Shown: positions 1 to 47,762 of the stretch, in pieces
Position numbering within the stretch: the first letter of the stretch is position 1
Layout of the letters: each line of letters opens with the position of its first letter
Source of the DNA: an uncultured Erysipelotrichaceae bacterium
GTDB taxonomy: Bacteria > Bacillota_I > Bacilli_A > RFN20 > CAG-826
NCBI GenBank assembly: GCA_900317165.1
Contig: ONFU01000009.1
Coordinates: 1-63,887 of the forward strand
Direction of reading: 5' to 3'
DNA length: 63,887 nucleotides
Notes under the pieces: model-generated
Seen by the model: the letters and a program-made list of their open reading frames with translations, nothing else
The model's database searches: none
What the model was told of the DNA's origin: nothing
Position numbers and translations under genes: made by a program

Positions 1-2573
1 GCGGCCGAATCGGTCTTGAAGTCGATGACCGTGTCGTTCATGTGGTTAGCGACCAAATAGTTGTAGATATCCACTGATGGATAAGGAACCTCGTTCTTGT
101 TGATGGCCATATGGAAACTGAGGTTGGTCGTGTTGAAATTGGTGTAGAGGGAATATTGGTGGTTCGGGGAGATATAGACGATGCGGTTTTGATCATCGAA
201 CTCCTGGGTGAAACCTAATTCATATAAGGAATATGGGTATTCGTTATAGACGGTCATGGCCTTCTTTTCGCCATCATACATAAGGCCTTGAATCTCGAAG
301 CGTCCAGATTCTGGACCATCGGTCTTGAGGTCGAACAATTTGACGTTGCCAAGTTTTGGTAACGGATCGGTGAATCCGAAGGCTGCCAATGTTTCCGCGA
401 CGAGTTTGCTATCCCAAGCATCAGGTGCATCGGGGATGACGTATTTGGTTGGGGTGACGCCTTCAGCAAGGCCAAAGACCATCTTGGAGGTCATCGATTT
501 GACGCTACCCATGCCATCGGTATAGACCTCGGTTACCTCAAAGAACAGTTCGTTCTTCTTGGCGTCGAGATAGAACCTCTTGGCGAAAGTCGTATCTCCG
601 GATGCGCCATTGATGACCTGGTCTTCGCCATTGAAGTCGATCGCGTAGATGTCCTCGCCATAATATTTATCGGAGGCTGCGGTTGGCTCAATGGAATAGG
701 AACCGCGGACGACGAATTCGTTTTGCTCGATCCTCCCAGATTCCGGAACCATCGCGAACTTAGCTTCGCCATATCCTTCCTCGAAGAGGCTGATCGCGGA
801 ATTCGCATATCCTTGTTGGTAACGCAAAGCCAAGTTGTCGTCTCCGCCTTCAAGTCTCGTAAGTTCCTTGAAGTTGAAGAGTTTGTTTTCGACTAACTGT
901 TCGTAATTATCATCATGAGGATCCTCTGGGAGATTATCCAAACGGCTTGGGGAATCGTTGACGGCTTCGAATTCGATGCCGCCTTTGAAAGAGACGCTTG
1001 AGCCGGCACCCTTGGAGGTGGTGATATAGCCTTCTGCCTTGAAGGATTCGGTGGAAGGAAGGTAATCGAAGTACATGTAATCGCCTAGGACGAAGACTTC
1101 CTGTCCGTAATCATTGATGTGATCACCATGATAGTATTTGCCGGCCTTGCCATTGAAGTAGGTTTCCAAAATAACTTCGGAGTAGACATACGAATCACTG
1201 ACTTCGGAATCGAAATGGCCCAAGAAGGCGTAATTGATTCTGCCGTCTGCTGAGGTGGAATACATCTCAAACGAAGCTCCGGTGATGTTTCCGTCATCAT
1301 CAATTTCGCCGTCATCGAAGAAGGAGACGGTGATGGTGGAGAGGAAGTTTTCGAGCCATTCCTTGGTGTATTTTGGATCTTCGGAATAACCATCCGCCAT
1401 AGATTCGGCCTTATATTTAAGGGTTAACCCCGCAAATGGATTGAGCTTATCGTCTTCCTGGCTCTCCGCGACGACGGTGATTTCGCAGGTCGCGATTAAT
1501 TTGCCTAAGGTGGCCGTGATGGTCGCCTTGCCTTCAGCAACGGCAGTCACGATGCCATATTCGTTAACGATGACGACGTTTTCGTTGCTGGAATTGAAAG
1601 TCGGCATCGAAGGAGTGGCGTCAGCCGGTTCAAAGATCATCGAGAGGGATTTGCTCTCGCCGACTTTCAAGGTCAAAGCCTTATCTACGAACTCGATTTT
1701 GGTGACATCGACGCCTGGGGCGACTTCCGGCAAAGTAACCTCTGTTGTGCCCCATTTTTCGGTGGTGATATTGACTGAGCCTCCTCCAGTAGGAGCGGAC
1801 GCTTTGTAAGACATCGAAATCAATTTCTGATCTTCGAATTTGATGACGATATCGGTGACATTGACTTCAAAGGTTCCTTCATCGTCTTCCATAACCCAAA
1901 CGTCGGAGGCTTTGACATAGGCATGAAGATCGCCATTGAAGGTGAACTCATTGAAGGCCCATGGATGGATGAAGGTTCCTACGATTGCCATGTATTGGGT
2001 AGCGACCGCGGCGCTTACGTTTACTTTTGTCCATTTGCCATCGCTGGATTGGACGTACATATCGTAAGTGCCATCTTGTTTAGGAACCGTATATGTGTTG
2101 AATTCCGATTCGCCGCCGACGGCTTTCAAATGGAGCTTGCCGTTTTCGTTTTCGATGAGGACTGTTTCGGTCGAGCCGTTATCTTGAACGGCCACGATAT
2201 TGAAGGTCAGGTTGTTGTTTACGCCAAAATAACCACCTCTTGTGATGTTCTCGGTCCAGAGGTTTTCGCTGACTTTATATTTTTCAAGCCCTTGTTCGCT
2301 GCTTGATTGATCGGGGCTTGTGGATTCCGATGATTCCACGGGCCCCGTTTCAGAAGAATCGTGTTCGCCTTCGCTTGAAGCGGATGATTCTCCGGAAGTC
2401 GATTCACCTTCGCTTGGTCTTGAAGTAGATGACTCCTCGGTGGTTAATGAGGTTGTCGCGCTGCCTTCGCTTCCGCCACTAGAGGAAGAGGATTCTGGAG
2501 CAACGCCAGGAGAGCAACTCGCCAAAAGGGCGGTCAGGGCAACCGCTGATAAAAGAATAAATGACCGTTTCAT
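1..2573 (-). CDS. Surface lipoprotein with Ser/Glu-rich linker and bacterial Ig-like (Big_2-type) domain; C-terminus runs off the left edge
   Basis: Absent from the supplied ORF track because it is open to the window edge. Reverse-strand ATG at 2573-2571 is preceded by GGAGGA. N-terminus MKRSFILLSAVALTALLASC is a signal peptide plus lipobox (LASC), followed by an S/E/G-rich linker. Segment VTKIEFVDKALTLKVGESKSL...IVTAVAEGKATITATLG fits the Big_2 pattern. My manual translation stays open to position 1. Track ORFs in 254-2598 are off-frame shadows. Confidence 0.8.
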   Translation of the reverse strand, partial: MKRSFILLSAVALTALLASCSPGVAPESSSSSGGSEGSATTSLTTEESSTSRPSEGESTSGESSASSEGEHDSSETGPVESSESTSPDQSSSEQGLEKYKVSENLWTENITRGGYFGVNNNLTFNIVAVQDNGSTETVLIENENGKLHLKAVGGESEFNTYTVPKQDGTYDMYVQSSDGKWTKVNVSAAVATQYMAIVGTFIHPWAFNEFTFNGDLHAYVKASDVWVMEDDEGTFEVNVTDIVIKFEDQKLISMSYKASAPTGGGSVNITTEKWGTTEVTLPEVAPGVDVTKIEFVDKALTLKVGESKSLSMIFEPADATPSMPTFNSSNENVVIVNEYGIVTAVAEGKATITATLGKLIATCEITVVAESQEDDKLNPFAGLTLKYKAESMADGYSEDPKYTKEWLENFLSTITVSFFDDGEIDDDGNITGASFEMYSTSADGRINYAFLGHFDSEVSDSYVYSEVILETYFNGKAGKYYHGDHINDYGQEVFVLGDYMYFDYLPSTESFKAEGYITTSKGAGSSVSFKGGIEFEAVNDSPSRLDNLPEDPHDDNYEQLVENKLFNFKELTRLEGGDDNLALRYQQGYANSAISLFEEGYGEAKFAMVPESGRIEQNEFVVRGSYSIEPTAASDKYYGEDIYAIDFNGEDQVINGASGDTTFAKRFYLDAKKNELFFEVTEVYTDGMGSVKSMTSKMVFGLAEGVTPTKYVIPDAPDAWDSKLVAETLAAFGFTDPLPKLGNVKLFDLKTDGPESGRFEIQGLMYDGEKKAMTVYNEYPYSLYELGFTQEFDDQNRIVYISPNHQYSLYTNFNTTNLSFHMAINKNEVPYPSVDIYNYLVANHMNDTVIDFKTDSA

Positions 2574-2899
2574 ATTTGGTCCTCCATTGCAAAAATAATT
2601 TAAGGCTTTATGTGCGGTTAGACAAGGATTATATGTATATAATCTATGCTCGTGCATACACGCAAATTGGCATTTTCGACCACCGTTTCTAAAGATTTTA
2701 CGGTTTTGCGAAATCTCTAATTTAGTATCCATTTTGTTAATTTTAGATTCGCGCTTACGCACGTGTTCTTAAGCGTGCGAGAATGGCGTTTGGAAAAATA
2801 AAAATTTTTTGAAATTTCTTTGCAAAAATGTGGTGAGAAATTCAAAAAGATTAGAAATAATCGAAGAAAAATATTAATAAAAAAATTTTTAAAAAACTC

Positions 2900-2927
2900 T
2901 TGACAAGGATAAAAATATCTCCATAAT
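2900..2927 (+). promoter_or_regulatory. Sigma70-type promoter with A/T-rich UP-like tract, driving the 2931-4153 RNA
   Basis: TTGACA (2900-2905), 16-nt spacer, CATAAT (2922-2927). Positions 2820-2899 are almost pure A/T (aaaaatttttaaaaaactc just upstream of the -35). Confidence 0.6.
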
Positions 2928-3003
2928 TATGCTCCTGCCGCTTGAAAAGGCGACAGTAAGGAGCTAAGGTCCTTCTGGTAACAGGGGTGACCCGTTAAGC
3001 TCC

Positions 3004-3030
3004 GGGAGCTGGAACTTCGCTCCCAAGAAG
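3004..3030 (+). repeat. ncRNA hairpin module A: GGGAGC-UGGAACUUC-GCUCCC followed by AAGAAG
   Basis: Read directly; shares loop and 3' tail with modules B-D, stem differs but remains complementary. Confidence 0.75.
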
Positions 3031-3134
3031 ATCGCGGCCGAGTCGAGTCGAGCGAGCCGAACCGCAACATGGTCAAAGCCGTGTTGTCAGGAGTTAGGGT
3101 AACCGAGTAATCGGTCGAAACCCGCCAAGCTCCA

Positions 3135-3160
3135 GGGTCTGGAAATTCGACCCTAAGAAG
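3135..3160 (+). repeat. ncRNA hairpin module B: GGGUC-UGGAAAUUC-GACCC followed by UAAGAAG
   Basis: Read directly; 5' flank ACCCGCCAAGCUCC parallels ACCCGUUAAGCUCC before module A. Confidence 0.75.
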
Positions 3161-3384
3161 ATTGGGGAGCGTGCTTCTCAATCCGCAGCGAACCCCCTGC
3201 AGCGATGCAGGCGCCGGCTACCGTACCTTGAGTAATCTAGGAACCGGGCACAAGTCGGAACACCTTGCTTGGGTGTTGAGAAAGGGAATGGGAAACCTGA
3301 ACCAAGGCCAAGCAACGGCGATAATGTATCGTCGGTACCGGATAGGGCAGCGGAAGTAATTCCGCCGAACCTGCAGAAGCCGGA

Positions 3385-3410
3385 AGGTCTGGAACTTCGA
3401 CCTTAAGAAA
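3385..3410 (+). repeat. ncRNA hairpin module C: AGGUC-UGGAACUUC-GACCU followed by UAAGAAA
   Basis: Read directly; same loop as module A with a co-varied stem. Confidence 0.7.
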
Positions 3411-3510
3411 ACCGCTGGACACGTCTAGCGGATCGAACCGTGGGAAACGGTAGAACGCTTCCCTGATCGCATAGGGTCTTCTGAGAAATTGGTTTGACCT
3501 GATAAGGCGA

Positions 3511-3539
3511 GCGGTCTGGCACACATCGGCCGCAAGAAG
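3511..3539 (+). repeat. ncRNA hairpin module D: GCGGUC-UGGCACACAUC-GGCCGC followed by AAGAAG
   Basis: Read directly; loop keeps 5' UGG and 3' UC, stem includes one U-G wobble. Confidence 0.6.
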
Positions 3540-4127
3540 GAACCGCGCAAGTGGTTCACAACCCGGAGCCGTGAGAGAAATCTCGCGCAGCTGGCTAGGG
3601 CGACTGCGATAGCATCAAGGACCCGCCTTCGCAAGCCAGGCGGTTAGCTTCCGACCGTACGAAGGCCGAGAGACGAAAGTCTCCAGTCGAGAGGGAGCGC
3701 ACATCACGTAAGTGGTGTGGTCCGGAGAGGGTACGATCTCACGAAGATCGCAACCCGTTAACAAACCGGGCGGCAAGGTAACCCCGCCGCAAGAAGGGCA
3801 AGGAAAACAGGCCTTGTCCGGAGTGGTCCGCTCCATGGGCAAAACCATGGAAGTCCAGTTAGGGCGCTTGAGCGATCAAGAATTCCTGCTAAAACTGGGG
3901 AAGATGATTGGCGCTCCCTGCCGATCACCGTCCAAGAAGGAAGGCTGTCAGGTCTTCCGCCGCCAGGAGGAGCGGTTAAGAAAAACCTTCTACTTCCGGA
4001 AAAGGGAAAGGCTGAGGACAAAAGCCCTCTCCCGGGATCCGGCGCCTTGTATCAGGCGAGAAGAACCAAAGCGTAAGTCAGGGTTCAAAGATGCGCCAGG
4101 GAAGCCACCTGATCGATTGGCTTGGGA

Positions 4128-4153
4128 GGGTGAGAGTGATCTCATCCTTTTTT
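4128..4153 (+). terminator. Intrinsic terminator ending the 2931-4153 RNA
   Basis: GGGTGAGA (4128-4135), loop GTGA, TCTCATCC (4140-4147), then TTTTTT (4148-4153). Confidence 0.75.
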
Positions 4154-4227
4154 GTTATTTATTGGCTATCGGTTTGCAAAAAAGTACTATAGTTTCGTGT
4201 AGCAAAAGTTCGAAAAGGAGGAAAAGT

Positions 4228-4779
4228 ATGAAAAAAACATTTCCTTTGCCTTTAATCTTAATGTGCCTTTCTTCATGTGGAGGTCAAGCCAATCCATATG
4301 GGACGATAGACCAAGAATCCTTAACTGCCATTTCCGGAAGTTATTATTTCTACGCGCCTAATGGCTGGTATGAAGAGAATCCAGAATGCGAACCCGTTAC
4401 CCTAGAGCTTAGAAGCGACTTAACCTACACGATTAATCTCGGAGAAGAATCCTATCAGCAAAAATACGAGATCCATCGCGTCAAAAACGAGGCCGCTAGA
4501 GATTATCAATATGCCGGAAGCATCGGCGATCCTTACCCCGAGGATAAAATACACAGCTATTCGATTGCCTTCGATTTTATCGATAAGGAACTCCCCTCTC
4601 CTTTAGCCTCTTCCTTCAGCCATTATAAAATGTCTTATCAATTCATCTATGTGGCCGTTGAGAAATACGGTTCGTATAAAAAAGGCACCACGTGGCTCAC
4701 CAAATATGGGGCCGCCATGGCAGATCCTATCTATGAGAGGGATCCAGATAGTAGGGGCATGACCTTCTATAAAGATTAA
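4228..4779 (+). CDS. Small lipoprotein, function unknown
   Basis: ATG at 4228 is preceded by AAAGGAGGA. MKKTFPLPLILMCLSSCGG is a signal peptide plus lipobox (LSSC). The track ORF 3712-4779 over-extends upstream through the terminator. Confidence 0.8.
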   Translation: MKKTFPLPLILMCLSSCGGQANPYGTIDQESLTAISGSYYFYAPNGWYEENPECEPVTLELRSDLTYTINLGEESYQQKYEIHRVKNEAARDYQYAGSIGDPYPEDKIHSYSIAFDFIDKELPSPLASSFSHYKMSYQFIYVAVEKYGSYKKGTTWLTKYGAAMADPIYERDPDSRGMTFYKD

Positions 4780-4852
4780 GCTTTATTAATAACCACTTAG
4801 CAAAAAAGCGTTTAGGTATTACAATACTTCCATATCTTAAAGGAGCAAACAA

Positions 4853-5080
4853 ATGGCAACCAAAGTCTATCATGTTTCCAAACGCGAAAAAGACGGCAAA
4901 TGGCAGGTCTTTATTCAGGGCAGCGATAAGGTCATCAAACTCTTCGATACCCGCAAGGAAGCCGAAGAATACTGCAAAGAGATGGCCAAGAACCAAGACG
5001 CCACCCTTCTCGTCCACAAATCCAAGGGCGAAAACAAAGGCAAAATTGATAAAGCCGTCCATAAATCCACCAAAAAGTAA
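4853..5080 (+). CDS. DUF2188-like small protein
   Basis: SD AAAGGAG. MATKVYHVSKREKDGKWQV...FDTRKEAEEYCKEMAKNQDATLLVHKSKG resembles the DUF2188 pattern. Confidence 0.65.
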   Translation: MATKVYHVSKREKDGKWQVFIQGSDKVIKLFDTRKEAEEYCKEMAKNQDATLLVHKSKGENKGKIDKAVHKSTKK

Positions 5081-5088
5081 TTTAAGCT

Positions 5089-5655
5089 ATGAGTGCTAGA
5101 GGAACGGCTAACCGCGATTCCTCAATCTTTCTTGAATTAGTTCGCTTCGTCTTGATCGGGGCCTATGCCACGGTCATCGATTACGTTGTCGAAGTATGGC
5201 TTGAATCCCTCCTTTCAGGATGGATTACTTCCAACCCCGGAAATCACCTATTCGCCTTTATGGCGACCTTTGTAATCGGGCTCGTGGGCTTCCTTTTCGG
5301 AACCCCGGCCACCTGGTCCTTAAGCGCGGTTTGGGGATTCCGCAACGTCGAAGACGAGAGAAAGGGCAAATCCTTAAAAGGCGCGTTGATCTTCACCGCC
5401 TTCGCCTTCGCTGGATTGGTCCTAGCTTCGATTATCCAATTCCTTGGCTACATGACTTGCCTTGAATGGACGAATCTGAACATCAACATTCTCAACATCA
5501 ATTTCTCGACCCTCTTCAAAGAGGACGTCGCGACTTTCTGGGCCTTCACGATTATCTTCGTTTTGAAGACGGTCGTCTCGATGACGTTCAATTACCTCAC
5601 GAGGAAATTCATTATCTTCAGGGCCCCCAAGAAGAAAGAAGAACCCGCGGAATAA
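5089..5655 (+). CDS. GtrA-family membrane protein
   Basis: LVRFVLIGAYATVIDYVVEVWL start and four predicted TM helices are typical of GtrA-like proteins. Confidence 0.7.
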   Translation: MSARGTANRDSSIFLELVRFVLIGAYATVIDYVVEVWLESLLSGWITSNPGNHLFAFMATFVIGLVGFLFGTPATWSLSAVWGFRNVEDERKGKSLKGALIFTAFAFAGLVLASIIQFLGYMTCLEWTNLNINILNINFSTLFKEDVATFWAFTIIFVLKTVVSMTFNYLTRKFIIFRAPKKKEEPAE

Positions 5656-5656
5656 G

Positions 5657-5695
5657 AAAAACGAACCCAATTTAGATACATGGGTTCGTTTTTTC
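5657..5695. terminator. Bidirectional intrinsic terminator between convergent genes
   Basis: AAAAACGAACCCA (5657-5669) pairs with TGGGTTCGTTTTT (5681-5693); A/T runs on both sides. Confidence 0.75.
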
Positions 5696-5699
5696 ATAA

Positions 5700-6188
5700 T
5701 TAATCAACGTAGATTTCTTTGGTTTCGTCGAAGTTGGCGATGGTATCTGGAGAAGGATCGAGATAATTAAGGGCCATATCGCGGATAACTTCATCCGGGA
5801 CCCATTTATCCTCTCTCCTTTGCTTGTTCCTGATGATGCATTTTTCATAATCATGGAGTTTGAGGAGATAGAGGCAATAATAATCAAACATCGGGAGATG
5901 ACGACGGAAGTAGAGCCTTCTTTCATCAAATAGCATCGTTGTATCGAAGATAACGGTGATCGATTCGTTTTCTTCCGCGAGTTTGGCAGCTCGATTAATC
6001 ATCTCGTTATAAACGAGCATCATGTTGTTGTTGGGTGGGAAATTACGATACGAACCATATAATTCGCATCTTAAATCGTCCGCGGAGATAATAACCACCT
6101 TTTCATCCGGATGGCTATTACGATATCCGTTGCTCCAAGTTGATTTTCCGATCGCGGCCGGCCCGCAAACCAATATCAGTTTTTTCAT
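5700..6188 (-). CDS. Stand-alone P-loop kinase, T4 polynucleotide-kinase-like (AAA_33 type)
   Basis: MKKLILVCGPAAIGKSTWSNGY Walker A, SADDLR, DTTML...RR and VPDEVIRDM parallel the T4 Pnk kinase-domain motifs. Confidence 0.7.
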   Translation of the reverse strand: MKKLILVCGPAAIGKSTWSNGYRNSHPDEKVVIISADDLRCELYGSYRNFPPNNNMMLVYNEMINRAAKLAEENESITVIFDTTMLFDERRLYFRRHLPMFDYYCLYLLKLHDYEKCIIRNKQRREDKWVPDEVIRDMALNYLDPSPDTIANFDETKEIYVD

Positions 6189-38618: not shown

Positions 38619-40535
38619 ATGAAAGACAAGGAGAAAAAAGAAAAACTGCATTTCCTAATTCTTGGAATCCGTATTGTCGTTTCCTTGACACTTGCCCTAC
38701 TTGGTTTCTTTCTTTTCAACGAAGGATCCTATGAGCTATGGGTAAACCTCATTTTCATGGTGACGGCCTATTTAATCATTTCCTATGACCTCTATATCGA
38801 GATGGTCGAGGAGATGAAGGAAGGCCATATCTTTAACGAAGCGACTTTGATGATCGTCGCCTCTCTAGGTGCGTTTTCCTTGCGTTTCTTTGGGAAGGAA
38901 CATAATGAATTCCTTGAAGCCTACCTCGTAATTCTTCTTTTCCAAGTCGGGGAGGTTTTCCAAGATCTCGCGGAAGACAAATCCCGTAAAGCCATTTTGA
39001 AGTCGATTGATTTACGTGAGGAATTAGCCTCCGTTTCAAGTGGCGAAGAAATAATAAGAAGGAAACCGGAAGAAGTGCATGTGGGCGATATCGTCATCGT
39101 TTCAACCGGCGAAAAGGTTCTTTGCGATGGCAGGGTCATAGATGGGAACGCCGAGATCGACGAATCCTCCTTAAGTGGCGAATCCGCTCTTATCGCCAAA
39201 CAAAACGGCGACCCCGTGTATTCGGGAACGCTTCTTTCTTCTGGTTCCATTAAAGTCGAGGTAACCAAAGAATATTCCGATTCGACCGTCGCCAAATTGA
39301 TGGAAGCTATCGAAGAAGGGGCAAACGGGAAATCTCGTTCGGAGAAATTCATCAGAAGGTTCTCCAAATGGTATACCCCAATCGTTATGCTTATCGCTTT
39401 GTTTGTTGCAGTCCTACCCCCTTTGTTCTTAGGGGCAAACCAAGCTCAAAACTGGTCAAAATGGATATATGTCTCGCTTAGTTTCCTCGTAGTCTCTTGC
39501 CCTTGCGCGATTGTTATCTCAGTCCCATTAGCCTATTTCTCAGGTCTTGGCCTAGCTTCCAAAAACGGGATTTTGGTTAAAGGGGCCGTCTATTTTGACG
39601 CCTTGAATTCCTTAAAGGCCGTCTATAGCGATAAGACGGGTACCATTACCGAAGGCAAACCAACCATTTCCGGCTTACGCGTTTTTGGAGTCAGCGAAGT
39701 CGAACTTGAGCAAACCCTTACCCTCATTGAATGCCGTAGCCATCATCCTCTTGCAGAATCCTTATATCGTTCTTTCAATAGGCCTAACATCGATTTCGAA
39801 TCCTATGATGAGATCCCTGGTTATGGAATCAAGGCTTCTTTTGAAGGCCATACTTATTTGGCTGGCCGTAAAAACCTTCTTGAGAAGGAAAACGTCGTTA
39901 TCAAGGGAGAAGAAAAAGGGACCGCGATTTATATCGCTAAAGACGGGGAACATATCGGAAACGCCCTCTTTGTTGATAAAGCCAAACGCCATTCCGCCCA
40001 TCTTGTTTCCTATCTCCACGAAAAAGACATAACGGTATCCTTGCTTTCTGGGGACGCCGAGGATTCCGTCAAGGATATCGCCACATCCCTCCAAATGGAT
40101 TCTTATCGTTCATCCCTTCTTCCTGAGGAGAAGATAGCGGCCTTGAAGGAAGAAAAAGCGAGAATAAACGGAACCATTGCCTATTTAGGCGATGGAATCA
40201 ATGACGCCCCAAGCCTCGCCTTTAGCGATGTTGGGGTTGCTATGGGCGGTCTAGGTTCCGATCTTTCTGTCATGAATGCCGACTGCGTCATCCTTAATGA
40301 TGATCCCCTTGCCTTTAGAAAGCTCCATAAGATTGCTAAAGCAACTAGGAATAGGGCCATCTTCAACATTGTCTTTTCCCTAACGGTTAAATTCGTAATC
40401 GTTTTCCTAGCTATCCTTTCTACCGTGATGGGCAGTTGGGAACTTCCATTATGGGTTTCCGTAGCAGGGGATTCTGGTTTGGCTTTGCTTGCGATAATCT
40501 CCTCTTTATTGCTTCAATTTAAGAAAATCGACTGA
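38619..40535 (+). CDS. P1B-type heavy-metal-translocating ATPase (Zn/Cd/Co-like), no N-terminal metal-binding domain
   Basis: SCPCAIVIS, DKTGTITEG and GDGINDAP. ATG at 38619 sits just after the regulator's stop. There is no CxxC before the first TM. Confidence 0.9.
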   Translation: MKDKEKKEKLHFLILGIRIVVSLTLALLGFFLFNEGSYELWVNLIFMVTAYLIISYDLYIEMVEEMKEGHIFNEATLMIVASLGAFSLRFFGKEHNEFLEAYLVILLFQVGEVFQDLAEDKSRKAILKSIDLREELASVSSGEEIIRRKPEEVHVGDIVIVSTGEKVLCDGRVIDGNAEIDESSLSGESALIAKQNGDPVYSGTLLSSGSIKVEVTKEYSDSTVAKLMEAIEEGANGKSRSEKFIRRFSKWYTPIVMLIALFVAVLPPLFLGANQAQNWSKWIYVSLSFLVVSCPCAIVISVPLAYFSGLGLASKNGILVKGAVYFDALNSLKAVYSDKTGTITEGKPTISGLRVFGVSEVELEQTLTLIECRSHHPLAESLYRSFNRPNIDFESYDEIPGYGIKASFEGHTYLAGRKNLLEKENVVIKGEEKGTAIYIAKDGEHIGNALFVDKAKRHSAHLVSYLHEKDITVSLLSGDAEDSVKDIATSLQMDSYRSSLLPEEKIAALKEEKARINGTIAYLGDGINDAPSLAFSDVGVAMGGLGSDLSVMNADCVILNDDPLAFRKLHKIAKATRNRAIFNIVFSLTVKFVIVFLAILSTVMGSWELPLWVSVAGDSGLALLAIISSLLLQFKKID

Positions 40536-40686: not shown

Positions 40687-41985
<1,299 letters not shown>

Positions 41986-42005
41986 GTTTCAACAATTAGC
42001 AATTA

Positions 42006-42032
42006 GGGCCGCCGACTTTGGCGGTCCTTTTT
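42006..42032 (+). terminator. Intrinsic terminator after eno
   Basis: GGGCCGCC (42006-42013) pairs with GGCGGTCC (42020-42027), followed by TTTTT. Confidence 0.8.
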
Positions 42033-42079
42033 GTGTGCGGTGTAGTCACTCGAATGATAATTTTAAAACGCTTTTTGAT

Positions 42080-42090
42080 TCTAGAAAACA
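42080..42090 (+). repeat. Left copy of the 11-bp direct repeat TCTAGAAAACA flanking the AT-rich island
   Basis: An exact copy recurs at 45267-45277. Confidence 0.7.
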
Positions 42091-42157
42091 TTGCTTACTG
42101 GTTACATAGAGTTGGGGTGAGGTTGAATTTTATTACTGGCAGGCTTTTAATATTTAT

Positions 42158-43399
42158 ATGTTAAAATTAGTTTTTGCACTTCTGAATTTATGTTTATTCT
42201 CTTATTCAAATGTTGGGCCCATTGATTTTGCTTGGGAAAGTCCTAAAGCCAATGAAGAATCTCTTAGGCAACATTATGATGAGTTTTTGAGCAGAACTTC
42301 TAATGATAATGCTTTGATGTCGCTTCCGTATGAGACGTTTGTCAATTATTATTTGAATTCCAGCGGATTAACTTTAGATGATTTTACTGCAACGCTAATC
42401 TCAGAATATTGCCACAGACAAAATAATCATGTTGAGGAATTATCAGATCATCAGATTGAGCGCTCATCCAACGATGCCTTTTATATTTTGAAAGATGGAA
42501 ATGGAGGAAACTCTATCTCTAACCCCTATTCGACTCTCTTCGATCCGATTTTTACGCCATATTATTGTTTTCAACAATTTCCATCTTATACCTCATTCGA
42601 TTTCAGTTCAGTAAAGAAAGGGGATATAATTTTAGAAACTGCAGCTCCAGATTTTGGTATGGGCCATGCCGCGATTGTCTATGACACCCACAAGTTTTAT
42701 GAAACTGAAGAAGGCATCTGTTTAACCTATATTCAAACAATTGAGGCTGTAGGTGGCGGAGTTCAATTTGGATTTTTAGATACGAATAGAATAAACCAAT
42801 TCGGAGTAATGATTCTTAGAACGCTTGCCGATGATGATGAAATAGAAGATTGTTTAGATTTTATCTATGCACAATTGGGAAAACCCTATAATTATCCTTT
42901 TGAACAAGGCCGCATAAATACAAGCATCAATTCAACCGAATGGTATTGTTCAGAACTAGTTTATGCAGGTTATTACTCAATTGGAGTTGTTTTCAATCAA
43001 ACATCGAGTGGTTGGATTAACCCATTTGATATTTTGTGGAGTTCGTACGTCTTTCCTACCTGCTTTTCCAACACTCCAGATCCTGTCCTTGTTGGCAAAT
43101 CGGGAAATACCTGGTCTTTTAAAGTTTATAATAGAACGGGAATCTCTCGCCCGCTTTATTACAATTCAAAACTATGCTTTCTAGGAGCAGGACTTACATG
43201 GAGCGGTTTATATGATGTTGTTACCATACCGAATGTCCAAAATAACCTGTTTTACTACGTTGGTGTTGATGAAAATTTGTTTGCCACGACAGCGGCCTTC
43301 TCTTTTACTGCAAACAATAAGAGAATGATTTCATGCTGCAAGTCCTTGGCAAGTCAGACTTTACATTTCGAAATGAAAAAGGCCGTGATTAATGTTTAG
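42158..43399 (+). CDS. Secreted/anchored protein with a permuted papain-like (NlpC/P60 superfamily, YiiX/YaeF C92-type) domain
   Basis: N-terminal hydrophobic MLKLVFALLNLCLFSYS. His-before-Cys order: GDIILETAAPDFGMGHAAIVYD...IEAVGGG...AQLGKPYNYPF...WYCSELVYAGY. Confidence 0.65.
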   Translation: MLKLVFALLNLCLFSYSNVGPIDFAWESPKANEESLRQHYDEFLSRTSNDNALMSLPYETFVNYYLNSSGLTLDDFTATLISEYCHRQNNHVEELSDHQIERSSNDAFYILKDGNGGNSISNPYSTLFDPIFTPYYCFQQFPSYTSFDFSSVKKGDIILETAAPDFGMGHAAIVYDTHKFYETEEGICLTYIQTIEAVGGGVQFGFLDTNRINQFGVMILRTLADDDEIEDCLDFIYAQLGKPYNYPFEQGRINTSINSTEWYCSELVYAGYYSIGVVFNQTSSGWINPFDILWSSYVFPTCFSNTPDPVLVGKSGNTWSFKVYNRTGISRPLYYNSKLCFLGAGLTWSGLYDVVTIPNVQNNLFYYVGVDENLFATTAAFSFTANNKRMISCCKSLASQTLHFEMKKAVINV

Positions 43400-43874
43400 T
43401 TTGCATCATATCTTTTTAAAAAATCAAGGAGGGCTTTTATTTGACAATTTATCGTTATCTTTTGAAGACATCGGTTTGGTATTCTTAATTGGTGAATGCA
43501 CTGTTAATGAATCAGTTTTTAGTTTTTTCTTTAGACCAAAAGAATACACGGGCAAAATTGTTTTTAATGGAAGAACTGTAAAAAAGGACTCTCCAGGATC
43601 GGTGTATAATTATAAAAGCGCAGTTGCTTTTCAAAAAACTGGTTCTTTAAATAAAGAACGCATTTCTTTGAGCCGTATTGCAATAATTTTAGATGATTCT
43701 GCTGACGTTTTTTCCGAGTTGGCCTATCTAAAAAGCGAATCTTTAAAGAGACTGGTTATTGTTGTTTCGAATAACAAAGAATTGGCAGAGAGTGTTGCAG
43801 ACAAAGCATATTATTATAAAGGACACAACTATGAACAGTTTATTGGTCAAAAAAAGTGTTTCTCCCGACTTTGA
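43392..43874 (+). CDS. Truncated, catalytically degenerate ABC nucleotide-binding-domain relic
   Basis: 160 aa. The ABC N-terminal strand pattern is LHHIFLKNQGGLLFDNLSLSFEDIGLVFLIG, then GECTVNES replaces Walker A. IAIILDDS is Walker-B-like and VIVVSNN replaces the H-loop. ATG overlaps the upstream stop. Confidence 0.55.
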   Translation: MFSLHHIFLKNQGGLLFDNLSLSFEDIGLVFLIGECTVNESVFSFFFRPKEYTGKIVFNGRTVKKDSPGSVYNYKSAVAFQKTGSLNKERISLSRIAIILDDSADVFSELAYLKSESLKRLVIVVSNNKELAESVADKAYYYKGHNYEQFIGQKKCFSRL

Positions 43875-45216
43875 AAAACAAAAGCGGCAGAAGAATATAT
43901 TTCACTTTAGAAATCTATTCAAATCCAAGGTTTCGATTGTTCTCTTGCTGATATCGCTGTTTTTTCTCTCATTCGCTACAGGGATAAACTATTCTGATAA
44001 TAGACAATCTTACCTATGCGATGCTTTTTTCTACCATAACCAAGAAATCGTTTGGACGAACACCAAACGAGAGGCTGGAATCATTATGGGTGTTTTTCAT
44101 CCCGGAACTATGTCTTTGCCTTGTATAAACAGGTTTATTACTGGTCTTGGAACCAAGAGCGAAACCACCGTCGGCTTTAGCGATGAACAATTGAAAATGA
44201 TTTGCGAGAACGCAAACGCGCTTCCCGCCGAGAGAAACTCTTTTGATTTAACTGAGGTTCTTGATTCTCCTTTGGCAAAGGATTTAAAGAAAGCTGGCAA
44301 ATACGGTGAATTCAATCTTGTAATCAACGAAAACACAAAAGGGGCTTCGGCTTTTATATCGATAAGCAACGAAGGCCAAGGCGGAAGACTTCCTAAATCA
44401 TCTGAAGAAATAGCGATATCTGACGCAAATGCGGCTTTGTTGGTGGCTAATGGATATAAGAATGATTTGGGAGAAACAATTAAGCCATCCACCGTTTCCG
44501 AACTCATCGGAATAGATTTGCTTGGAAGAAAAATCGTTGGCATATTCAAAACGCAGTTCCTCGGCTCTTCTTTTGAAAACGCATCAATGTCCTTAACGGA
44601 TTTGAATTCAGAAGGACGACTTGAGCAATATAAAGATTTCGTTCAAGCCAACAAAAAGATAGCCTCGTTTGTTGTTTTTAAAGAGAACGCTGCAACCTCT
44701 TCCTTCTTCCTAAAAACAAGAGGGAATCTCTTTGGGGATTTGATGTTTTTACTTGTTTTAGGAAGCGATGCCCCGTTTCACGATAAAACGCTTTATGGCC
44801 CAGCGATTACTATGTCATGGCCAATTTCCATCGCCATCTTTTATACTTTAGCCTTGTTATTTGCTATTCTCTCAATCGTTATTGGTCACGTTTCTTTTTC
44901 CAAGTCATTGTCTAAGGAAGAGATATCCATTTATATCGAAAATCGGCCCCAAAAACGTAAGATTTTTGGATGGGTTTATTCCAAAATGATTGCGGTACAT
45001 TTGCTTTTTGGAGGCGCGGCCATCCTCGCGAGCCAAATATCGTTTGCGATAATCAATTCCATTGCGGGAGAATTCCTTTTTTCGCATTTTGCAATTAGCG
45101 CTGCCATCGTTTTGGCCTTAATCGCTTTGGTTGATCTTCTTGTTGCGGCTTCAAAAACAAAACAGATTTTAAGAAAGCTCAGTGGAATTACCGATAATAA
45201 TGCCGAAAAACAATAA
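43831..45216 (+). CDS. FtsX/MacB-type ABC permease-like membrane protein
   Basis: N-terminal TM (VSIVLLLISLFFLSFATG), an extracytoplasmic domain of about 300 aa, and three C-terminal TMs. ATG at 43831 is preferred to the track start at 43759. Confidence 0.6.
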   Translation: MNSLLVKKSVSPDFEKQKRQKNIFHFRNLFKSKVSIVLLLISLFFLSFATGINYSDNRQSYLCDAFFYHNQEIVWTNTKREAGIIMGVFHPGTMSLPCINRFITGLGTKSETTVGFSDEQLKMICENANALPAERNSFDLTEVLDSPLAKDLKKAGKYGEFNLVINENTKGASAFISISNEGQGGRLPKSSEEIAISDANAALLVANGYKNDLGETIKPSTVSELIGIDLLGRKIVGIFKTQFLGSSFENASMSLTDLNSEGRLEQYKDFVQANKKIASFVVFKENAATSSFFLKTRGNLFGDLMFLLVLGSDAPFHDKTLYGPAITMSWPISIAIFYTLALLFAILSIVIGHVSFSKSLSKEEISIYIENRPQKRKIFGWVYSKMIAVHLLFGGAAILASQISFAIINSIAGEFLFSHFAISAAIVLALIALVDLLVAASKTKQILRKLSGITDNNAEKQ

Positions 45217-45258
45217 GCTTTAGCAAACCGTTCTTGCCTCGTATCCAACGGCCTAACC

Positions 45259-45267
45259 TGTTATAAT
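45259..45267 (+). promoter_or_regulatory. Extended -10 promoter (TGTTATAAT) upstream of preT
   Basis: TG at 45259-45260, TATAAT at 45262-45267. Abuts the right copy of the direct repeat. Confidence 0.5.
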
Positions 45268-45277
45268 CTAGAAAACA
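45267..45277 (+). repeat. Right copy of the 11-bp direct repeat TCTAGAAAACA
   Basis: Exact match to 42080-42090. Confidence 0.7.
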
Positions 45278-45291
45278 ACGAAAGGTTTTCT

Positions 45292-46497
45292 ATGAGCAAG
45301 ACACATTTTTCAGAAGAGAGTGTGGGATTTAGCCCAACCTTGGCAATGGAGGAGGCTGCACGTTGTCTCCTTTGCCATGACGCCCCGTGCAGCAAGGCTT
45401 GCCCCGCCATGACCGACCCAGCGAAATTTATTCGCTCGATCCGTTTTAAAAACACAAAAGGAGCAGCCCGTACCATTAGGATTAATAATCCGCTCGGCGG
45501 TATCTGCGCCCGTGTTTGCCCAACGGAGAAATACTGCCAATTAGGCTGTTCCCGTTCAGGCATCGACCGTCCAATCGAAATCGCCAAATTGCAACGTTTT
45601 GCAACTGATGTCGAAGCCTGCTTAGGCATGGAATTCCAAGAAAGAAAAGAAAATAACGGCAAGTGTGTAGCGATTATTGGTTCAGGCCCAGCCGGTTTAA
45701 CCGCCGCGGCTATGTTAGCTAGAGAAGGAACCGCCGTCGATTTATATGAAAGAAAACCAAAACTCGGCGGATATCTCCGTTATGGTATTCCTTCCTATCG
45801 TTTAAGTGAGGATGTCCTTGATAAAGAAATCGGCCATATCCTTAAATTGGGAGTTAACCCTATCGTTAACAACAAAGTTAAGTCGATAAAAGAATTAGAA
45901 GCCAAATACGATGCCGTGATTGTGGCAATTGGCTATTCCGCAGGCAAAATGCTTCCATTATTCGAAGGCAACAAGAGAGCCATGACCGCGGTAGTTTTCT
46001 TAGCTAAAGCCAAAAGGAAAGGATATCGCGTCAAGGATAACGTTCTTGTTATCGGCGGAGGAGACGTTGCAATGGATGCAGCGACTACCTCCAAAAAACT
46101 TGGTGCCAAACAAGTCACCGTCATCGCTTATGAAACTAACGAGGAATTTAGGGCAAGCCGCGATGAATTGGCTTTGACCCGCGAAATGAAGGCCTCGATA
46201 TATGATGGCTTCGTTCCAACGAAGGTGCTTCGTGGGGGAACAGTCATTTTCGAACATCGTTATGTGCCGACATCCATCAAGATCAAGGCTGATCAAATCA
46301 TTCTTGCGGTCGGCCAAGAAATAGATCATGGGTCCCTTGAACTTGAAAAAGGCAAGGCTGAATTCATCCATCAAAAAGGAAGCAAAGTCTATTATGCCGG
46401 GGACATTGCTCCGTTAGATAAAACGGTTGTCTACGCCGTTAGGAAAGGCAAAGACGTCGCTAATGAAGTCCTAAAGGATTTGGAGGCAAAAAGATGA
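45292..46497 (+). CDS. preT: NAD-dependent dihydropyrimidine dehydrogenase subunit PreT (GltD-like)
   Basis: N-terminal Fe-S cysteines ([25 protein letters not shown]), [12 protein letters not shown], and a second Rossmann motif [10 protein letters not shown]. Confidence 0.8.
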
Positions 46498-47762
46498 AAG
46501 ACCTTTCGATAACCTTCATGGGGGTTAAGTTCCCCAATCCATTCTGCCTATCTTCGTCTCCAGTTGGAAATTGCTATGACATGTGCGCCAAAGCCTATGA
46601 ATCAGGCTGGGGTGGTGTCGTTTTCAAGACAATTGGGCCAGCCCATTACCTAATTGATGAGGTTTCCCCTCGCTTTGACGCCTTGGCAAAAGAAGGGGAG
46701 CCATTCGTCGGTTTTAAGAACATGGAACAAATCGCTGAACATTCTCTTGAAGAGAATCTTGCCGATTTGAGAAAACTAAAGAAGAACTACCCCGATAAAG
46801 TCCTTATTGCCTCCATCATGGGGAGTAACGAAAAGGATTGGGAAGAGCTTGCTAGACTCGTCACCGAGGCCGGCGCGGATATGATCGAACTTAATTTCTC
46901 CTGCCCGCAGATGACAAGCCACGCGATGGGAAGCGACGTTGGTTCAAACCCTGAGTTATGCAAGAAGTACTGCGAGGCCGTTAGGCGTTCGACCAAACTT
47001 CCGTTCATGGCCAAGATGACCCCAAACGTCACCGATATGTGTGTTCCTGCCCTTGCTTCTTTAGAAGGCGGGGCAGACGGTATCTCCGCGATCAACACCA
47101 TTAAATCAATCATCAATCTTGATCTTAACCAGAAGGTTGGCCTTCCAATCATCGATGGAAAGTCCTCGATTTCCGGTTATTCAGGCAAAGCCGTGAAACC
47201 TGTTGCGTTGCGCTTTATTGCCCAAATGGCCAATAACCCGAAGATGAAGGGCGTCCAGATTTCTGGAATCGGCGGAATCGAAACCTGGGAGGATGCCGCG
47301 GAATTCATTCTCCTTGGGGCGAGAAACCTTCAAGTCACCACCGCCATTATGCAATACGGTTACCGTATCGTCGAAGACCTATGCGAAGGCCTTAGCTTCT
47401 ACATGGAAGAACAAGATGTTGATTTCTTGGAAGAACTTGTTGGCTTAGCCAATAAAAACATCATTCCAGCGGAAGAATTGAACCGCGATTACATAGTCTA
47501 CCCAGAAATCGATAACGATAAGTGTGTCGGCTGTGGAAGATGCGTTATCTCTTGCTATGATGGAGCCCATCAAGCCATGGAATGGAATGAGGAGACCCGT
47601 AGGCCAAATTGCAACCACGATAAGTGCGTCGGTTGTCTTCTCTGCGGCCTAGTCTGCCCAGTCCATGCGATCAACCTTGGTGAGAGAAAGCTCAAAAAAG
47701 GAAGGAAGCCACTTGATTTCAAGAGGGTGAAAGTCCAAAAGAGTTTTGACAAGATTTCCTAA
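46494..47762 (+). CDS. preA: Dihydropyrimidine dehydrogenase subunit PreA (DHODH-like TIM barrel plus 2x[4Fe-4S])
   Basis: ATGA overlap with pre[12 protein letters not shown], and C-terminal [11 protein letters not shown] and [12 protein letters not shown]. Confidence 0.8.

Follow-up and report, generated by a model that had tools for sequence, protein, structure and literature searches.

An eroded enzyme–permease cassette with a degenerate ATPase in an uncultured Erysipelotrichaceae bacterium

The 63,887-nucleotide (nt) contig ONFU01000009.1 of an uncultured Erysipelotrichaceae bacterium (assembly GCA_900317165.1; hereafter, the window) carries an AT-rich island of three co-oriented genes between eno and preT. 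A first-pass annotation, made by a model from the sequence alone, had read them as a horizontally acquired FtsEX-like module that controls or delivers an exported hydrolase. Our analysis indicates that the island is very probably the degenerate form of a cassette of two genes found repeatedly among uncultured gut Bacillota, in which a Sec-exported permuted NlpC/P60 enzyme is followed by a MacB-type protein. As judged from sequence comparison, this MacB-type partner is a single chain in which an N-terminal ATPase is fused to a permease with four transmembrane segments (TMs) and a large extracytoplasmic domain. The window copy represents a late, eroded stage of the cassette, with the following features (aa, amino acids; ABC, ATP-binding cassette; NBD, nucleotide-binding domain).

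42158–43399, plus strand: gene 1, 413 aa, predicted Sec-exported permuted NlpC/P60 enzyme (Peptidase_C92, YaeF/YiiX-like)
43392–43874, plus strand: gene 2, 160-aa relic of an ABC NBD, predicted to be catalytically dead
43831–45216, plus strand: gene 3, 461 aa, NBD-less type VII (MacB/FtsX-like) permease
42665–42949, plus strand: gene 1 catalytic residues, His170 (42665–42667), Glu196 (42743–42745), Tyr244 (42887–42889) and Cys264 (42947–42949)
43849–43855, plus strand: A7 homopolymer in the gene 2/gene 3 overlap, the point where genes 2 and 3 change frame
42266–43889, no strand: segment absent in deletion-type strains, covering most of gene 1 and all of gene 2

The three open reading frames (ORFs) lie exactly where they were first described and overlap in succession: the ATG of gene 2 overlaps the gene 1 stop by 8 nt, and the ATG of gene 3 lies 44 nt inside gene 2, with an alternative TTG start at 43759. 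Base composition sets the island apart. Its G+C content is 37.3% (gene 1, 36.6%; gene 2, 32.3%; gene 3, 39.4%), slightly above the 30–35% estimated by eye, and the contrast with the flanks is real, with 54.5% in eno, 46.4% in preT, 47.8% in preA and a window mean of 49.3% (SD 5%). No other 3.2-kb stretch of the window is as low in G+C (bottom 0.3% of sliding windows), and G+C at third codon positions (GC3) is 0.26–0.40, compared with 0.45–0.61 in the neighbours.

The enzyme assignment of gene 1, to a permuted C92 exoprotein, stands. Its score for the Pfam family Peptidase_C92 (PF05708) exceeds the gathering score at aa 168–281 (30.7 versus 27 bits) and falls below the NCBIfam equivalog cutoff for YaeF (NF008552; 18.6 versus 279 bits), so that gene 1 is not a YaeF ortholog and belongs to a distinct subfamily. 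This family comprises at least 82 clusters of proteins of approximately 430 aa, nearly all from metagenomic Bacillota, and a precomputed PF05708 match is present in most of the clusters. The sequence motifs and the His-before-Cys order noted at first are also present: GH170 precedes WYC264 by 94 residues, and both are conserved family-wide. His170 and Tyr244 are invariant in both gene 1 alignments, Glu196 is near-invariant, and Cys264 shows no variation in the alignment of the catalytic core and very little in that of 37 sequences. In YiiX, the active site is built from a Cys/His dyad, a third polar residue and a signature Tyr, with catalytic roles described for Tyr115 and Cys128 (PMC3142127). 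These two residues align with Tyr244 and Cys264 of gene 1 in its top sequence match in the PDB, YiiX itself (2IF6), a marginal match (E = 0.13) in which GKPY..YCSE is aligned; Glu196 is, on conservation, the probable third polar residue. The permutation can be seen directly, because canonical CwlO has its GD..GH segment after the Cys, the opposite order to gene 1; the catalytic-Cys segment of CwlO does align to gene 1, weakly.

An AF2 model of gene 1 is confident (pLDDT 87.9, pTM 0.85) and shows a signal helix (aa 2–13), a three-helix N-domain (aa 33–89), an alpha/beta catalytic core (approximately aa 150–300) and a C-terminal beta-sandwich (aa 305–412). Gene 1 thus shares with YiiX, YaeF and BcPPNE the Pfam family above its curated cutoff, the His-then-Cys order and the conserved Tyr, and differs from them in its length of 413 aa, with the extra helical N-domain and the beta-sandwich. 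Foldseek with the full-length model returned only Ig/FnIII-like matches, all to the beta-sandwich and none touching the core. A signal-like (Sec-type) N terminus is present in 66 of 71 full-length homologs. Three further observations concern this family. One strain (P0124) carries a 12-aa in-frame deletion (NTWSFKVYNRTG) in the beta-sandwich; a 587-aa protein matching as a gene 1 homolog (P0017) also contains the integrase-core Pfam domains PF00665 and PF13565, possibly through an insertion sequence or a gene fusion; and at L006:328–7326 a BceRS/BceAB-like set of response regulator, histidine kinase, ABC NBD and 780-aa FtsX permease is closely followed by a gene 1 homolog.

Neither gene 2 nor gene 3 matches any Pfam or NCBIfam model directly, ABC_tran and FtsX included, and it is family-specific profiles, built from the proteins adjoining gene 1 homologs with the window excluded, that confirm the proposed ABC and FtsX assignments. 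Gene 2 aligns to the NBD profile of these partners with 97% hhalign probability (E = 1.1e-10; aa 1–144 against NBD positions 3–217) and is the top hit to this profile among 288 ORFs of the window (hmmsearch E = 8.8e-7). Its position between gene 1 and the permease agrees with that of the NBD in fused relatives. The motifs that bind and hydrolyse ATP have been lost, in keeping with the dead relic proposed by the first-pass annotation: Walker A reads GECTVNES in place of GksGsGKT; approximately 55 residues comprising the Q-loop, the helical subdomain and the LSGGQ signature are deleted; the DE of Walker B is DD (IILDD), its catalytic Glu now an Asp; and the SHD of the H-loop is SNN. Sequence comparison therefore identifies gene 2 as a homolog of an NBD that is predicted to be no functional ATPase.

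The split between genes 2 and 3 has a simple origin. Removal of one A from the A7 run fuses them into a single ORF of 607 aa, comparable to the fused partners of approximately 645–745 aa in relatives, and the split is thus a single homopolymer frameshift of an ancestral fused NBD–permease gene. The A7 run is present in all four full-type strains examined (the window, L001, L063 and L064). A single-base slip at this run would give the 607-aa fusion, so that phase variation, or slippage during transcription, is conceivable. Synthesis of a fused protein in this way, or by programmed +1 frameshifting at A7, is possible but was dropped as an explanation; the product would still be without ATPase motifs. 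Gene 2 itself varies among strains: it is frameshifted by a 1-nt insertion in L064, and P0129 has a three-residue substitution in it, AFQ to KLK. P0130, at first sight a variant of the gene 2 N terminus, was rejected as such: its DNA shows a 1-nt insertion, and it counts only as weak evidence of decay because its contig begins inside gene 2.

Gene 3 has the MacB/FtsX topology that was first proposed. Hydropathy places TM1 at aa 34–52 (43930–43986) and TM2–TM4 at aa 334–438 (44830–45144), with an extracytoplasmic domain of approximately 280 aa (aa 53–333; 43987–44829) between TM1 and TM2, mirroring the fused relative L002. The permease profile of gene 1-adjacent partners, which carry PF02687, matches gene 3 over its full length (E = 2.9e-25, 83 bits). 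Searched against the PDB, the gene 3 family profile has MacB as its best match (E = 4.5e-7), with YbbP at E = 2.4e-4 and YtrF, FtsX and LolF also found; library-wide, gene 3 is matched by P0088, an ABC_tran+FtsX protein (E = 1.6e-5). A word-indexed homolog search with gene 3 returned only gene 3 itself, a second round with the family alignment yielded hardly anything more, and an exhaustive HMMER scan found just five relatives among 1.84 billion representatives, indicating a fast-evolving family. In type VII ABC permeases the major coupling helix between TM2 and TM3 engages the NBD (PMC5985334). Gene 3 has lost this helix, ERKRELGILRALGA: where NBD-bearing members read ERKRE(L/F)GILRALGA, gene 3 reads SKEEISIYIENRP. 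Of relevance to a possible porter subdomain, the extracytoplasmic motifs RLP..EIAISD and LIG...IVGI are retained.

The genes behave as parts of a cassette. We examined 41 informative instances of gene 1 homologs from GTDB genomes and metagenomes (gut Bacillota). In 32 of them the neighbouring gene on the same strand encodes a type VII component, and its start codon often overlaps the stop codon before it, in agreement with the co-conservation expected at first for this trio of gene types. L002 and L004 have a fused ABC_tran+FtsX protein of approximately 730 aa directly downstream of a gene 1 homolog (approximately 39% identity). The partners form a series in the state of their ATPase: the NBD is intact in L002, L004, L015, L026, L016, L034 and L044, and in the split pair of L012; it is degenerate, without the Walker A lysine, signature and H-loop, in L019, both copies of L040, L024, L027, L030, L022 and L039; and it is absent in L009, L020, L035, L037 and L042. 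The coupling-helix segment is kept where an NBD is present and lost in gene 3 and the other NBD-less members except L009, whereas RLP..EIAISD and LIG..IVGI are conserved in all these members. In the nearest relatives of the window copy (L058, L060 and L061), gene 1 is followed directly by gene 3, without gene 2; gene 1 of L058 is 55% identical to that of the window, and gene 3 of L060 and L061 is 36% identical. On these sequences, the ancestral partner is best described as a fused MacB-type NBD–permease and not a split FtsE/FtsX pair.

Several MAGs (metagenome-assembled genomes) hold two or three paralogous gene 1 loci, and some arrangements are more elaborate. L040:116–6850 is a tandem of enzyme, partner, enzyme and partner in which both partners have a degenerate NBD, and L034:2274–7846 has one enzyme followed by two paralogous fused partners. 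Approximately 150 nt downstream of the NBD-less permease in L035:6306–10329 and L037:5871–9892 lies a gene for an 825–834-aa protein with two ABC NBDs, which could supply an ATPase in trans or be an unrelated ABC-F-type protein.

MacB (PDB 5LIL, 5NIK and 5GKO) is the closest likeness of the ancestral partner: in both, the NBD is fused at the N terminus of a four-TM chain, TM1 and TM2 are separated by a large extracytoplasmic domain, and a coupling helix lies between TM2 and TM3 (PMC5985334). Unlike MacB, the cassette has no MacA or TolC-type partners and occurs in Bacillota MAGs, and its partner gene encodes an exported enzyme rather than an adaptor. The window copy has also lost the coupling helix, and what is left of its NBD is a dead relic encoded by a separate ORF.

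These results bear most directly on FtsEX-like control, the mechanism proposed by the first-pass annotation, in which the extracytoplasmic domain of the partner would activate a peptidoglycan-cleaving NlpC/P60 enzyme as FtsEX does with CwlO, RipC and PcsB. Gene 3 and FtsX do belong to the same superfamily, and FtsEX likewise pairs a type VII ABC module with a hydrolase, or an activator of one, outside the cytoplasm (CwlO, RipC, PcsB or EnvC). CwlO and RipC are NlpC/P60 enzymes and known FtsEX clients (PMC10694151, PMC6705773), the helical N-domain of gene 1 could serve as a coiled-coil adaptor, and the weak alignment of the CwlO catalytic-Cys segment points the same way. However, FtsE and FtsX are separate, near-universal and ATP-requiring, and their clients are canonical, non-permuted peptidoglycan hydrolases with coiled-coil adaptors, whereas the enzyme of the island is permuted, the module is accessory, strain-variable and dispensable within the species, the ATPase is dead or absent, and the gene 1 model has a three-helix N-domain and no long coiled coil. 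With the NBD reduced to a relic without its motifs, the coupling helix lost and the nearest relatives lacking an NBD altogether, ATP-driven FtsEX-like mechanotransmission cannot operate at this locus. The ancestral partner was a fused MacB-type protein with an extracytoplasmic domain of approximately 280–300 aa, not a split pair, by the same sequence criteria. The YiiX type to which gene 1 belongs is tied to lipids through its S1 pocket and its characterised relatives (PMC3142127, PMC12994826). Gene 1 homologs also occur in MAGs labelled Mollicutes, Acholeplasmataceae and Mycoplasmatales, where, to go by these labels alone, peptidoglycan may be absent. We consider FtsEX-like control of gene 1 very unlikely.

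The nine remaining loci, those without a type VII partner, show a different replacement: in all nine, another polytopic membrane protein directly follows the gene 1 homolog (3–9 TMs, 136–308 aa, no Pfam family). The gene 1-type enzyme therefore seems always to be accompanied by a membrane partner, of more than one kind. These alternative polytopic partner proteins are encoded at the following positions.

L023:5848–6675
L031:5856–6641
L032:1404–2330
L036:5210–5926
L043:5684–6490
L038:1864–2316
L045:4747–5193
L041:5566–5985
L013:5988–6398

An alternative reading is a cooperative lipid- or lipoprotein-processing complex like YbbAP–TesA or LnsAB, in which the partner extracts or presents a membrane lipid or lipoprotein and the docked enzyme acts on the envelope of its own cell by cleaving or transferring an acyl chain; in the window lineage the partner would by now serve as a passive scaffold, much like LnsB beside LnsA. 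Tight adjacency with start/stop overlap (32 of the 41 loci), intact ATPases in many lineages, which imply mechanical work, and the match of the family profile to YbbP all argue for such a complex, as do the homologs of gene 1 that are lipoproteins and the LnsB-like look of the nine alternative arrangements. In YbbAP–TesA, a type VII ABC transporter forms a complex with the product of an adjacent gene, an exported acyl-hydrolase whose substrates are hydrophobic (PMC12646458). The differences are that TesA is an SGNH-type esterase rather than an NlpC/P60 enzyme, that YbbP is a double-module permease whose ATPase, YbbA, is separate, and that the ATP-driven mechanotransmission documented there is impossible at the window locus. 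LnsAB, the lipoprotein N-acylation system of Staphylococcus aureus, is nearer in its enzyme: LnsA is an exported permuted NlpC/P60 acyltransferase with a Cys/His/Tyr active site that requires an adjacent integral-membrane partner, and the catalytic motifs of that partner, LnsB, are themselves dispensable (PMC13559823), a parallel to gene 1 with an ATPase-less gene 3. This likeness is by description; LnsB belongs to the CPBP/CAAX family and not to FtsX, and LnsA has 189 aa and no extra domains. Three observations argue against a cooperative complex. Repeated loss of the ATPase is hard to square with ATP-driven extraction as the core activity, the patchy, GC-atypical and strain-variable distribution is unlike that of a housekeeping envelope pathway, and gene 3 remains under purifying selection after deletion of genes 1 and 2 (see below), which calls for either another copy of gene 1 or a role of gene 3 that does not depend on gene 1. 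On balance, a cooperative complex is the main rival to the reading favoured below, though rather unlikely.

Variation within the species separates the fates of the three genes. The island is identical in dozens of contigs, with L063 approximately 100% identical to the window. L062, at 95.9% nucleotide identity and with the eno...preT synteny kept, lacks 42266–43889 in blastn alignment, a 1.6-kb deletion whose junction lies at the imperfect repeat GAAGAAT(C/A)T(C/A)TT, and additionally lacks a small stretch at the gene 1 start; its gene 3 is intact. L069, L071 and L072 form a second deletion lineage, with the identical large junction and a different small 5′ deletion. Deletion-type alleles make up approximately 8 of the 58 contigs of the gene 3 cluster (approximately 14%).

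Gene 3 has nevertheless stayed open, with no stop codon or frameshift in six of six strains, and under purifying selection. Its ratio of nonsynonymous to synonymous divergence (dN/dS) is 0.18–0.31 in all strain pairs, compared with 0.01–0.07 for copA, eno, preT and preA. Between the two deletion lineages, in which most of gene 1 and all of gene 2 are gone, gene 3 shows 22 synonymous and 18 nonsynonymous differences (Sd = 22, Nd = 18) and a dN/dS of 0.23, and neutrality is rejected (P = 7e-6). Selection on gene 3 in strains without genes 1 and 2 is not expected of a protein whose sole job is to control gene 1, and this counts against control of gene 1 as the role of the module, as first proposed.

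The same variation invites the view that the island is a decaying remnant, a horizontally acquired cassette under erosion with no current function, the constraint on gene 3 being a leftover or an artefact of few substitutions. Degeneration of gene 2 and its frameshift variant, the homopolymer split from gene 3, the 1.6-kb deletion allele, the 12-aa in-frame deletion in gene 1 of one strain, the AT-rich composition and a gene 3 dN/dS 5–10 times that of the neighbours all fit with decay. Yet the catalytic residues of gene 1 are all kept and its 413-aa ORF is intact and identical across dozens of contigs; gene 3 is uninterrupted and non-neutral, as above; and the NBD-less arrangement of gene 1 with gene 3 is conserved in relatives whose gene 3 is just 36% identical. 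A functionless remnant thus appears very unlikely.

By divergence at synonymous sites (dS), the island segment looks younger than its flanks. In the same strain pairs, dS is 0.04–0.08 in gene 3 (43891–45216) and 0.13–0.25 in copA, preT and preA (38619–40535 and 45292–47762), so that the synonymous divergence of gene 3 is approximately one-third that of the flanks; this suggests that the segment spread among strains after the flanks had diverged, through recombination or a sweep. As a separate observation, eno (40687–41985) is clearly more GC-rich than the window mean (54.5%, GC3 0.61) and has a low dS between strains (0.05–0.10), which fits the strong codon bias of a highly expressed gene.

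The island is bordered by these further features.

42005–42038, plus strand: intrinsic terminator 3′ of eno, with a 10-bp stem (7 GC pairs), a 4-nt loop and a T-rich tail
42080–42090, no strand: upstream copy of an exact 11-bp direct repeat, TCTAGAAAACA, defined by sequence identity with the downstream copy
45267–45277, no strand: downstream copy of the repeat TCTAGAAAACA, 14 nt upstream of the preT start codon

The terminator is strong and separates the island from the eno transcript; a terminator scan of the locus found none between gene 3 and preT. The exact 11-bp repeat that had been reported to bracket the island is present, and an 11-bp word common to both flanking intergenic regions arises with P of approximately 0.002 in shuffles and in 1.1% of sliding controls. 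Pure chance was entertained, as other 11-mers recur inside the island, and dropped, because the flank-restricted test makes the repeat marginal. The repeat is thus uncommon, not extraordinary, and suggestive of insertion without being proof. It is not demonstrated as a target-site duplication, because no empty site was found via members of the enolase cluster; the named Erysipelotrichaceae MAG sharing the 90% enolase cluster is not syntenic. In that MAG (L065–L068, approximately 1100–5700), eno is preceded by RHS/YD-shell-like genes that have small ORFs downstream of them. No integrase is found among the genes called within approximately 8 kb on either side of the island. Horizontal acquisition, as first claimed, is plausible from composition and non-syntenic relatives and is not proven. 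Searches of the island with PADLOC, PHROGs and Rfam gave no match, and it is accordingly not a catalogued defence system, not phage-related and without a known RNA element.

How could a permease without its ATPase, and in some strains without its enzyme, remain useful? Permuted NlpC/P60 enzymes are linked to lipid rather than peptidoglycan substrates (PMC3142127, PMC12994826, PMC13559823), and YiiX has a hydrophobic S1 pocket with a bound fatty acid (PMC3142127). We tentatively favour a reading in which gene 3 is an ATP-independent partner of a lipid-directed acyl-hydrolase or acyl-transferase, acting as a guard (immunity-like) or as a dock; this reading, drawn from sequence and from analogy with characterised relatives, is plausible at somewhat less than even confidence. 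The loss of the motor itself is very probable in this lineage: internal deletions and motif loss shrank the ATPase to the 160-aa relic, a one-base insertion in the A-run parted the relic from the permease, and the permease lost its NBD-docking cytoplasmic coupling helix while keeping the conserved extracytoplasmic motifs. The extracytoplasmic domain of gene 3, its presumed working part, may bind the gene 1-type enzyme or shield its membrane-lipid substrate at the outer face of the membrane. Gene 2 would have no function of its own and be on its way to loss, and gene 1 is probably still an active enzyme where present, to judge from its residues.

A guard role is favoured because of the selection on gene 3 without genes 1 and 2, which it would explain, the tandem cassettes, the partner replacement, the patchy, GC-atypical distribution and the lipid literature. 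The lowest G+C of the window, the low dS, the tandem cassettes, partner replacement in nine loci and an extremely sparse, fast-evolving family are accessory or conflict-like traits. A comparable pairing exists in the Tox-Act1 and TseH effectors of the type VI secretion system, with a permuted NlpC/P60 core, phospholipase activity and a membrane-associated immunity protein encoded alongside the toxin (PMC12994826), and, like the island, they have an accessory, polymorphic distribution. They differ in being delivered by that secretion system in Gram-negative bacteria, where gene 1 would be Sec-exported in Bacillota, and their immunity proteins are not type VII ABC proteins.

Several points weigh against a guard role. 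In other lineages the ATPase of most partners is apparently still active, and a machine for active extraction or presentation would account for this at least as well as immunity does. A lipobox is found in approximately 10% of gene 1 homologs, and tethering to the producer would be odd for a diffusible toxin. The structure model of gene 3 is poor (pLDDT 51, from a shallow alignment). Gene 3 is approximately 9-fold less constrained than the flanking genes (P = 8e-8), which makes slow decay possible. An identical deletion junction arising twice could mean that the dN/dS path is partly pre-deletion, and the retention of gene 3 could reflect a gene 1 paralog elsewhere, given the MAGs with paralogous loci and a view of only 64 kb of this genome. 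Finally, we know of no precedent for an FtsX-like protein giving immunity against an enzyme.

Type VII ABC systems are understood to transmit mechanical force, driven by ATP, to partners outside the cytoplasm, as in FtsEX with peptidoglycan hydrolases, LolCDE with LolA, MacAB with TolC and, since 2025, YbbAP with TesA. The theme of a type VII ABC system with a hydrolase is therefore known; what is new is a permuted NlpC/P60 class of enzyme as the partner, together with recurrent natural loss of the ATPase. In keeping with the first impression that the combination was undescribed, the searchable literature yielded no paper combining Peptidase_C92 with FtsX and no description of this enzyme–partner pairing. 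The pairing with YiiX-type NlpC/P60 enzymes would add a partner class, and a third class of enzyme, to type VII ABC systems, and it would place the poorly understood C92 family in a genomic setting suggestive of membrane-lipid chemistry. The series of intact, degenerate and absent ATPases offers a natural experiment on what a type VII membrane and extracytoplasmic module does without ATP, and the polymorphism within the species, with the enzyme lost and the partner selected, offers a handle on whether the pair is cooperative or antagonistic. It is possible, though doubtful, that ATPase-shed FtsX/MacB proteins provide immunity more widely against Sec-secreted, lipid-targeting permuted NlpC/P60 enzymes, as an unrecognised toxin–immunity family of gut Firmicutes and Mollicutes-like bacteria. 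If so, strains that have deleted the toxin and kept the guard would be 'orphan immunity' genotypes, and the type VII ABC fold would work, repeatedly, without any ATPase.

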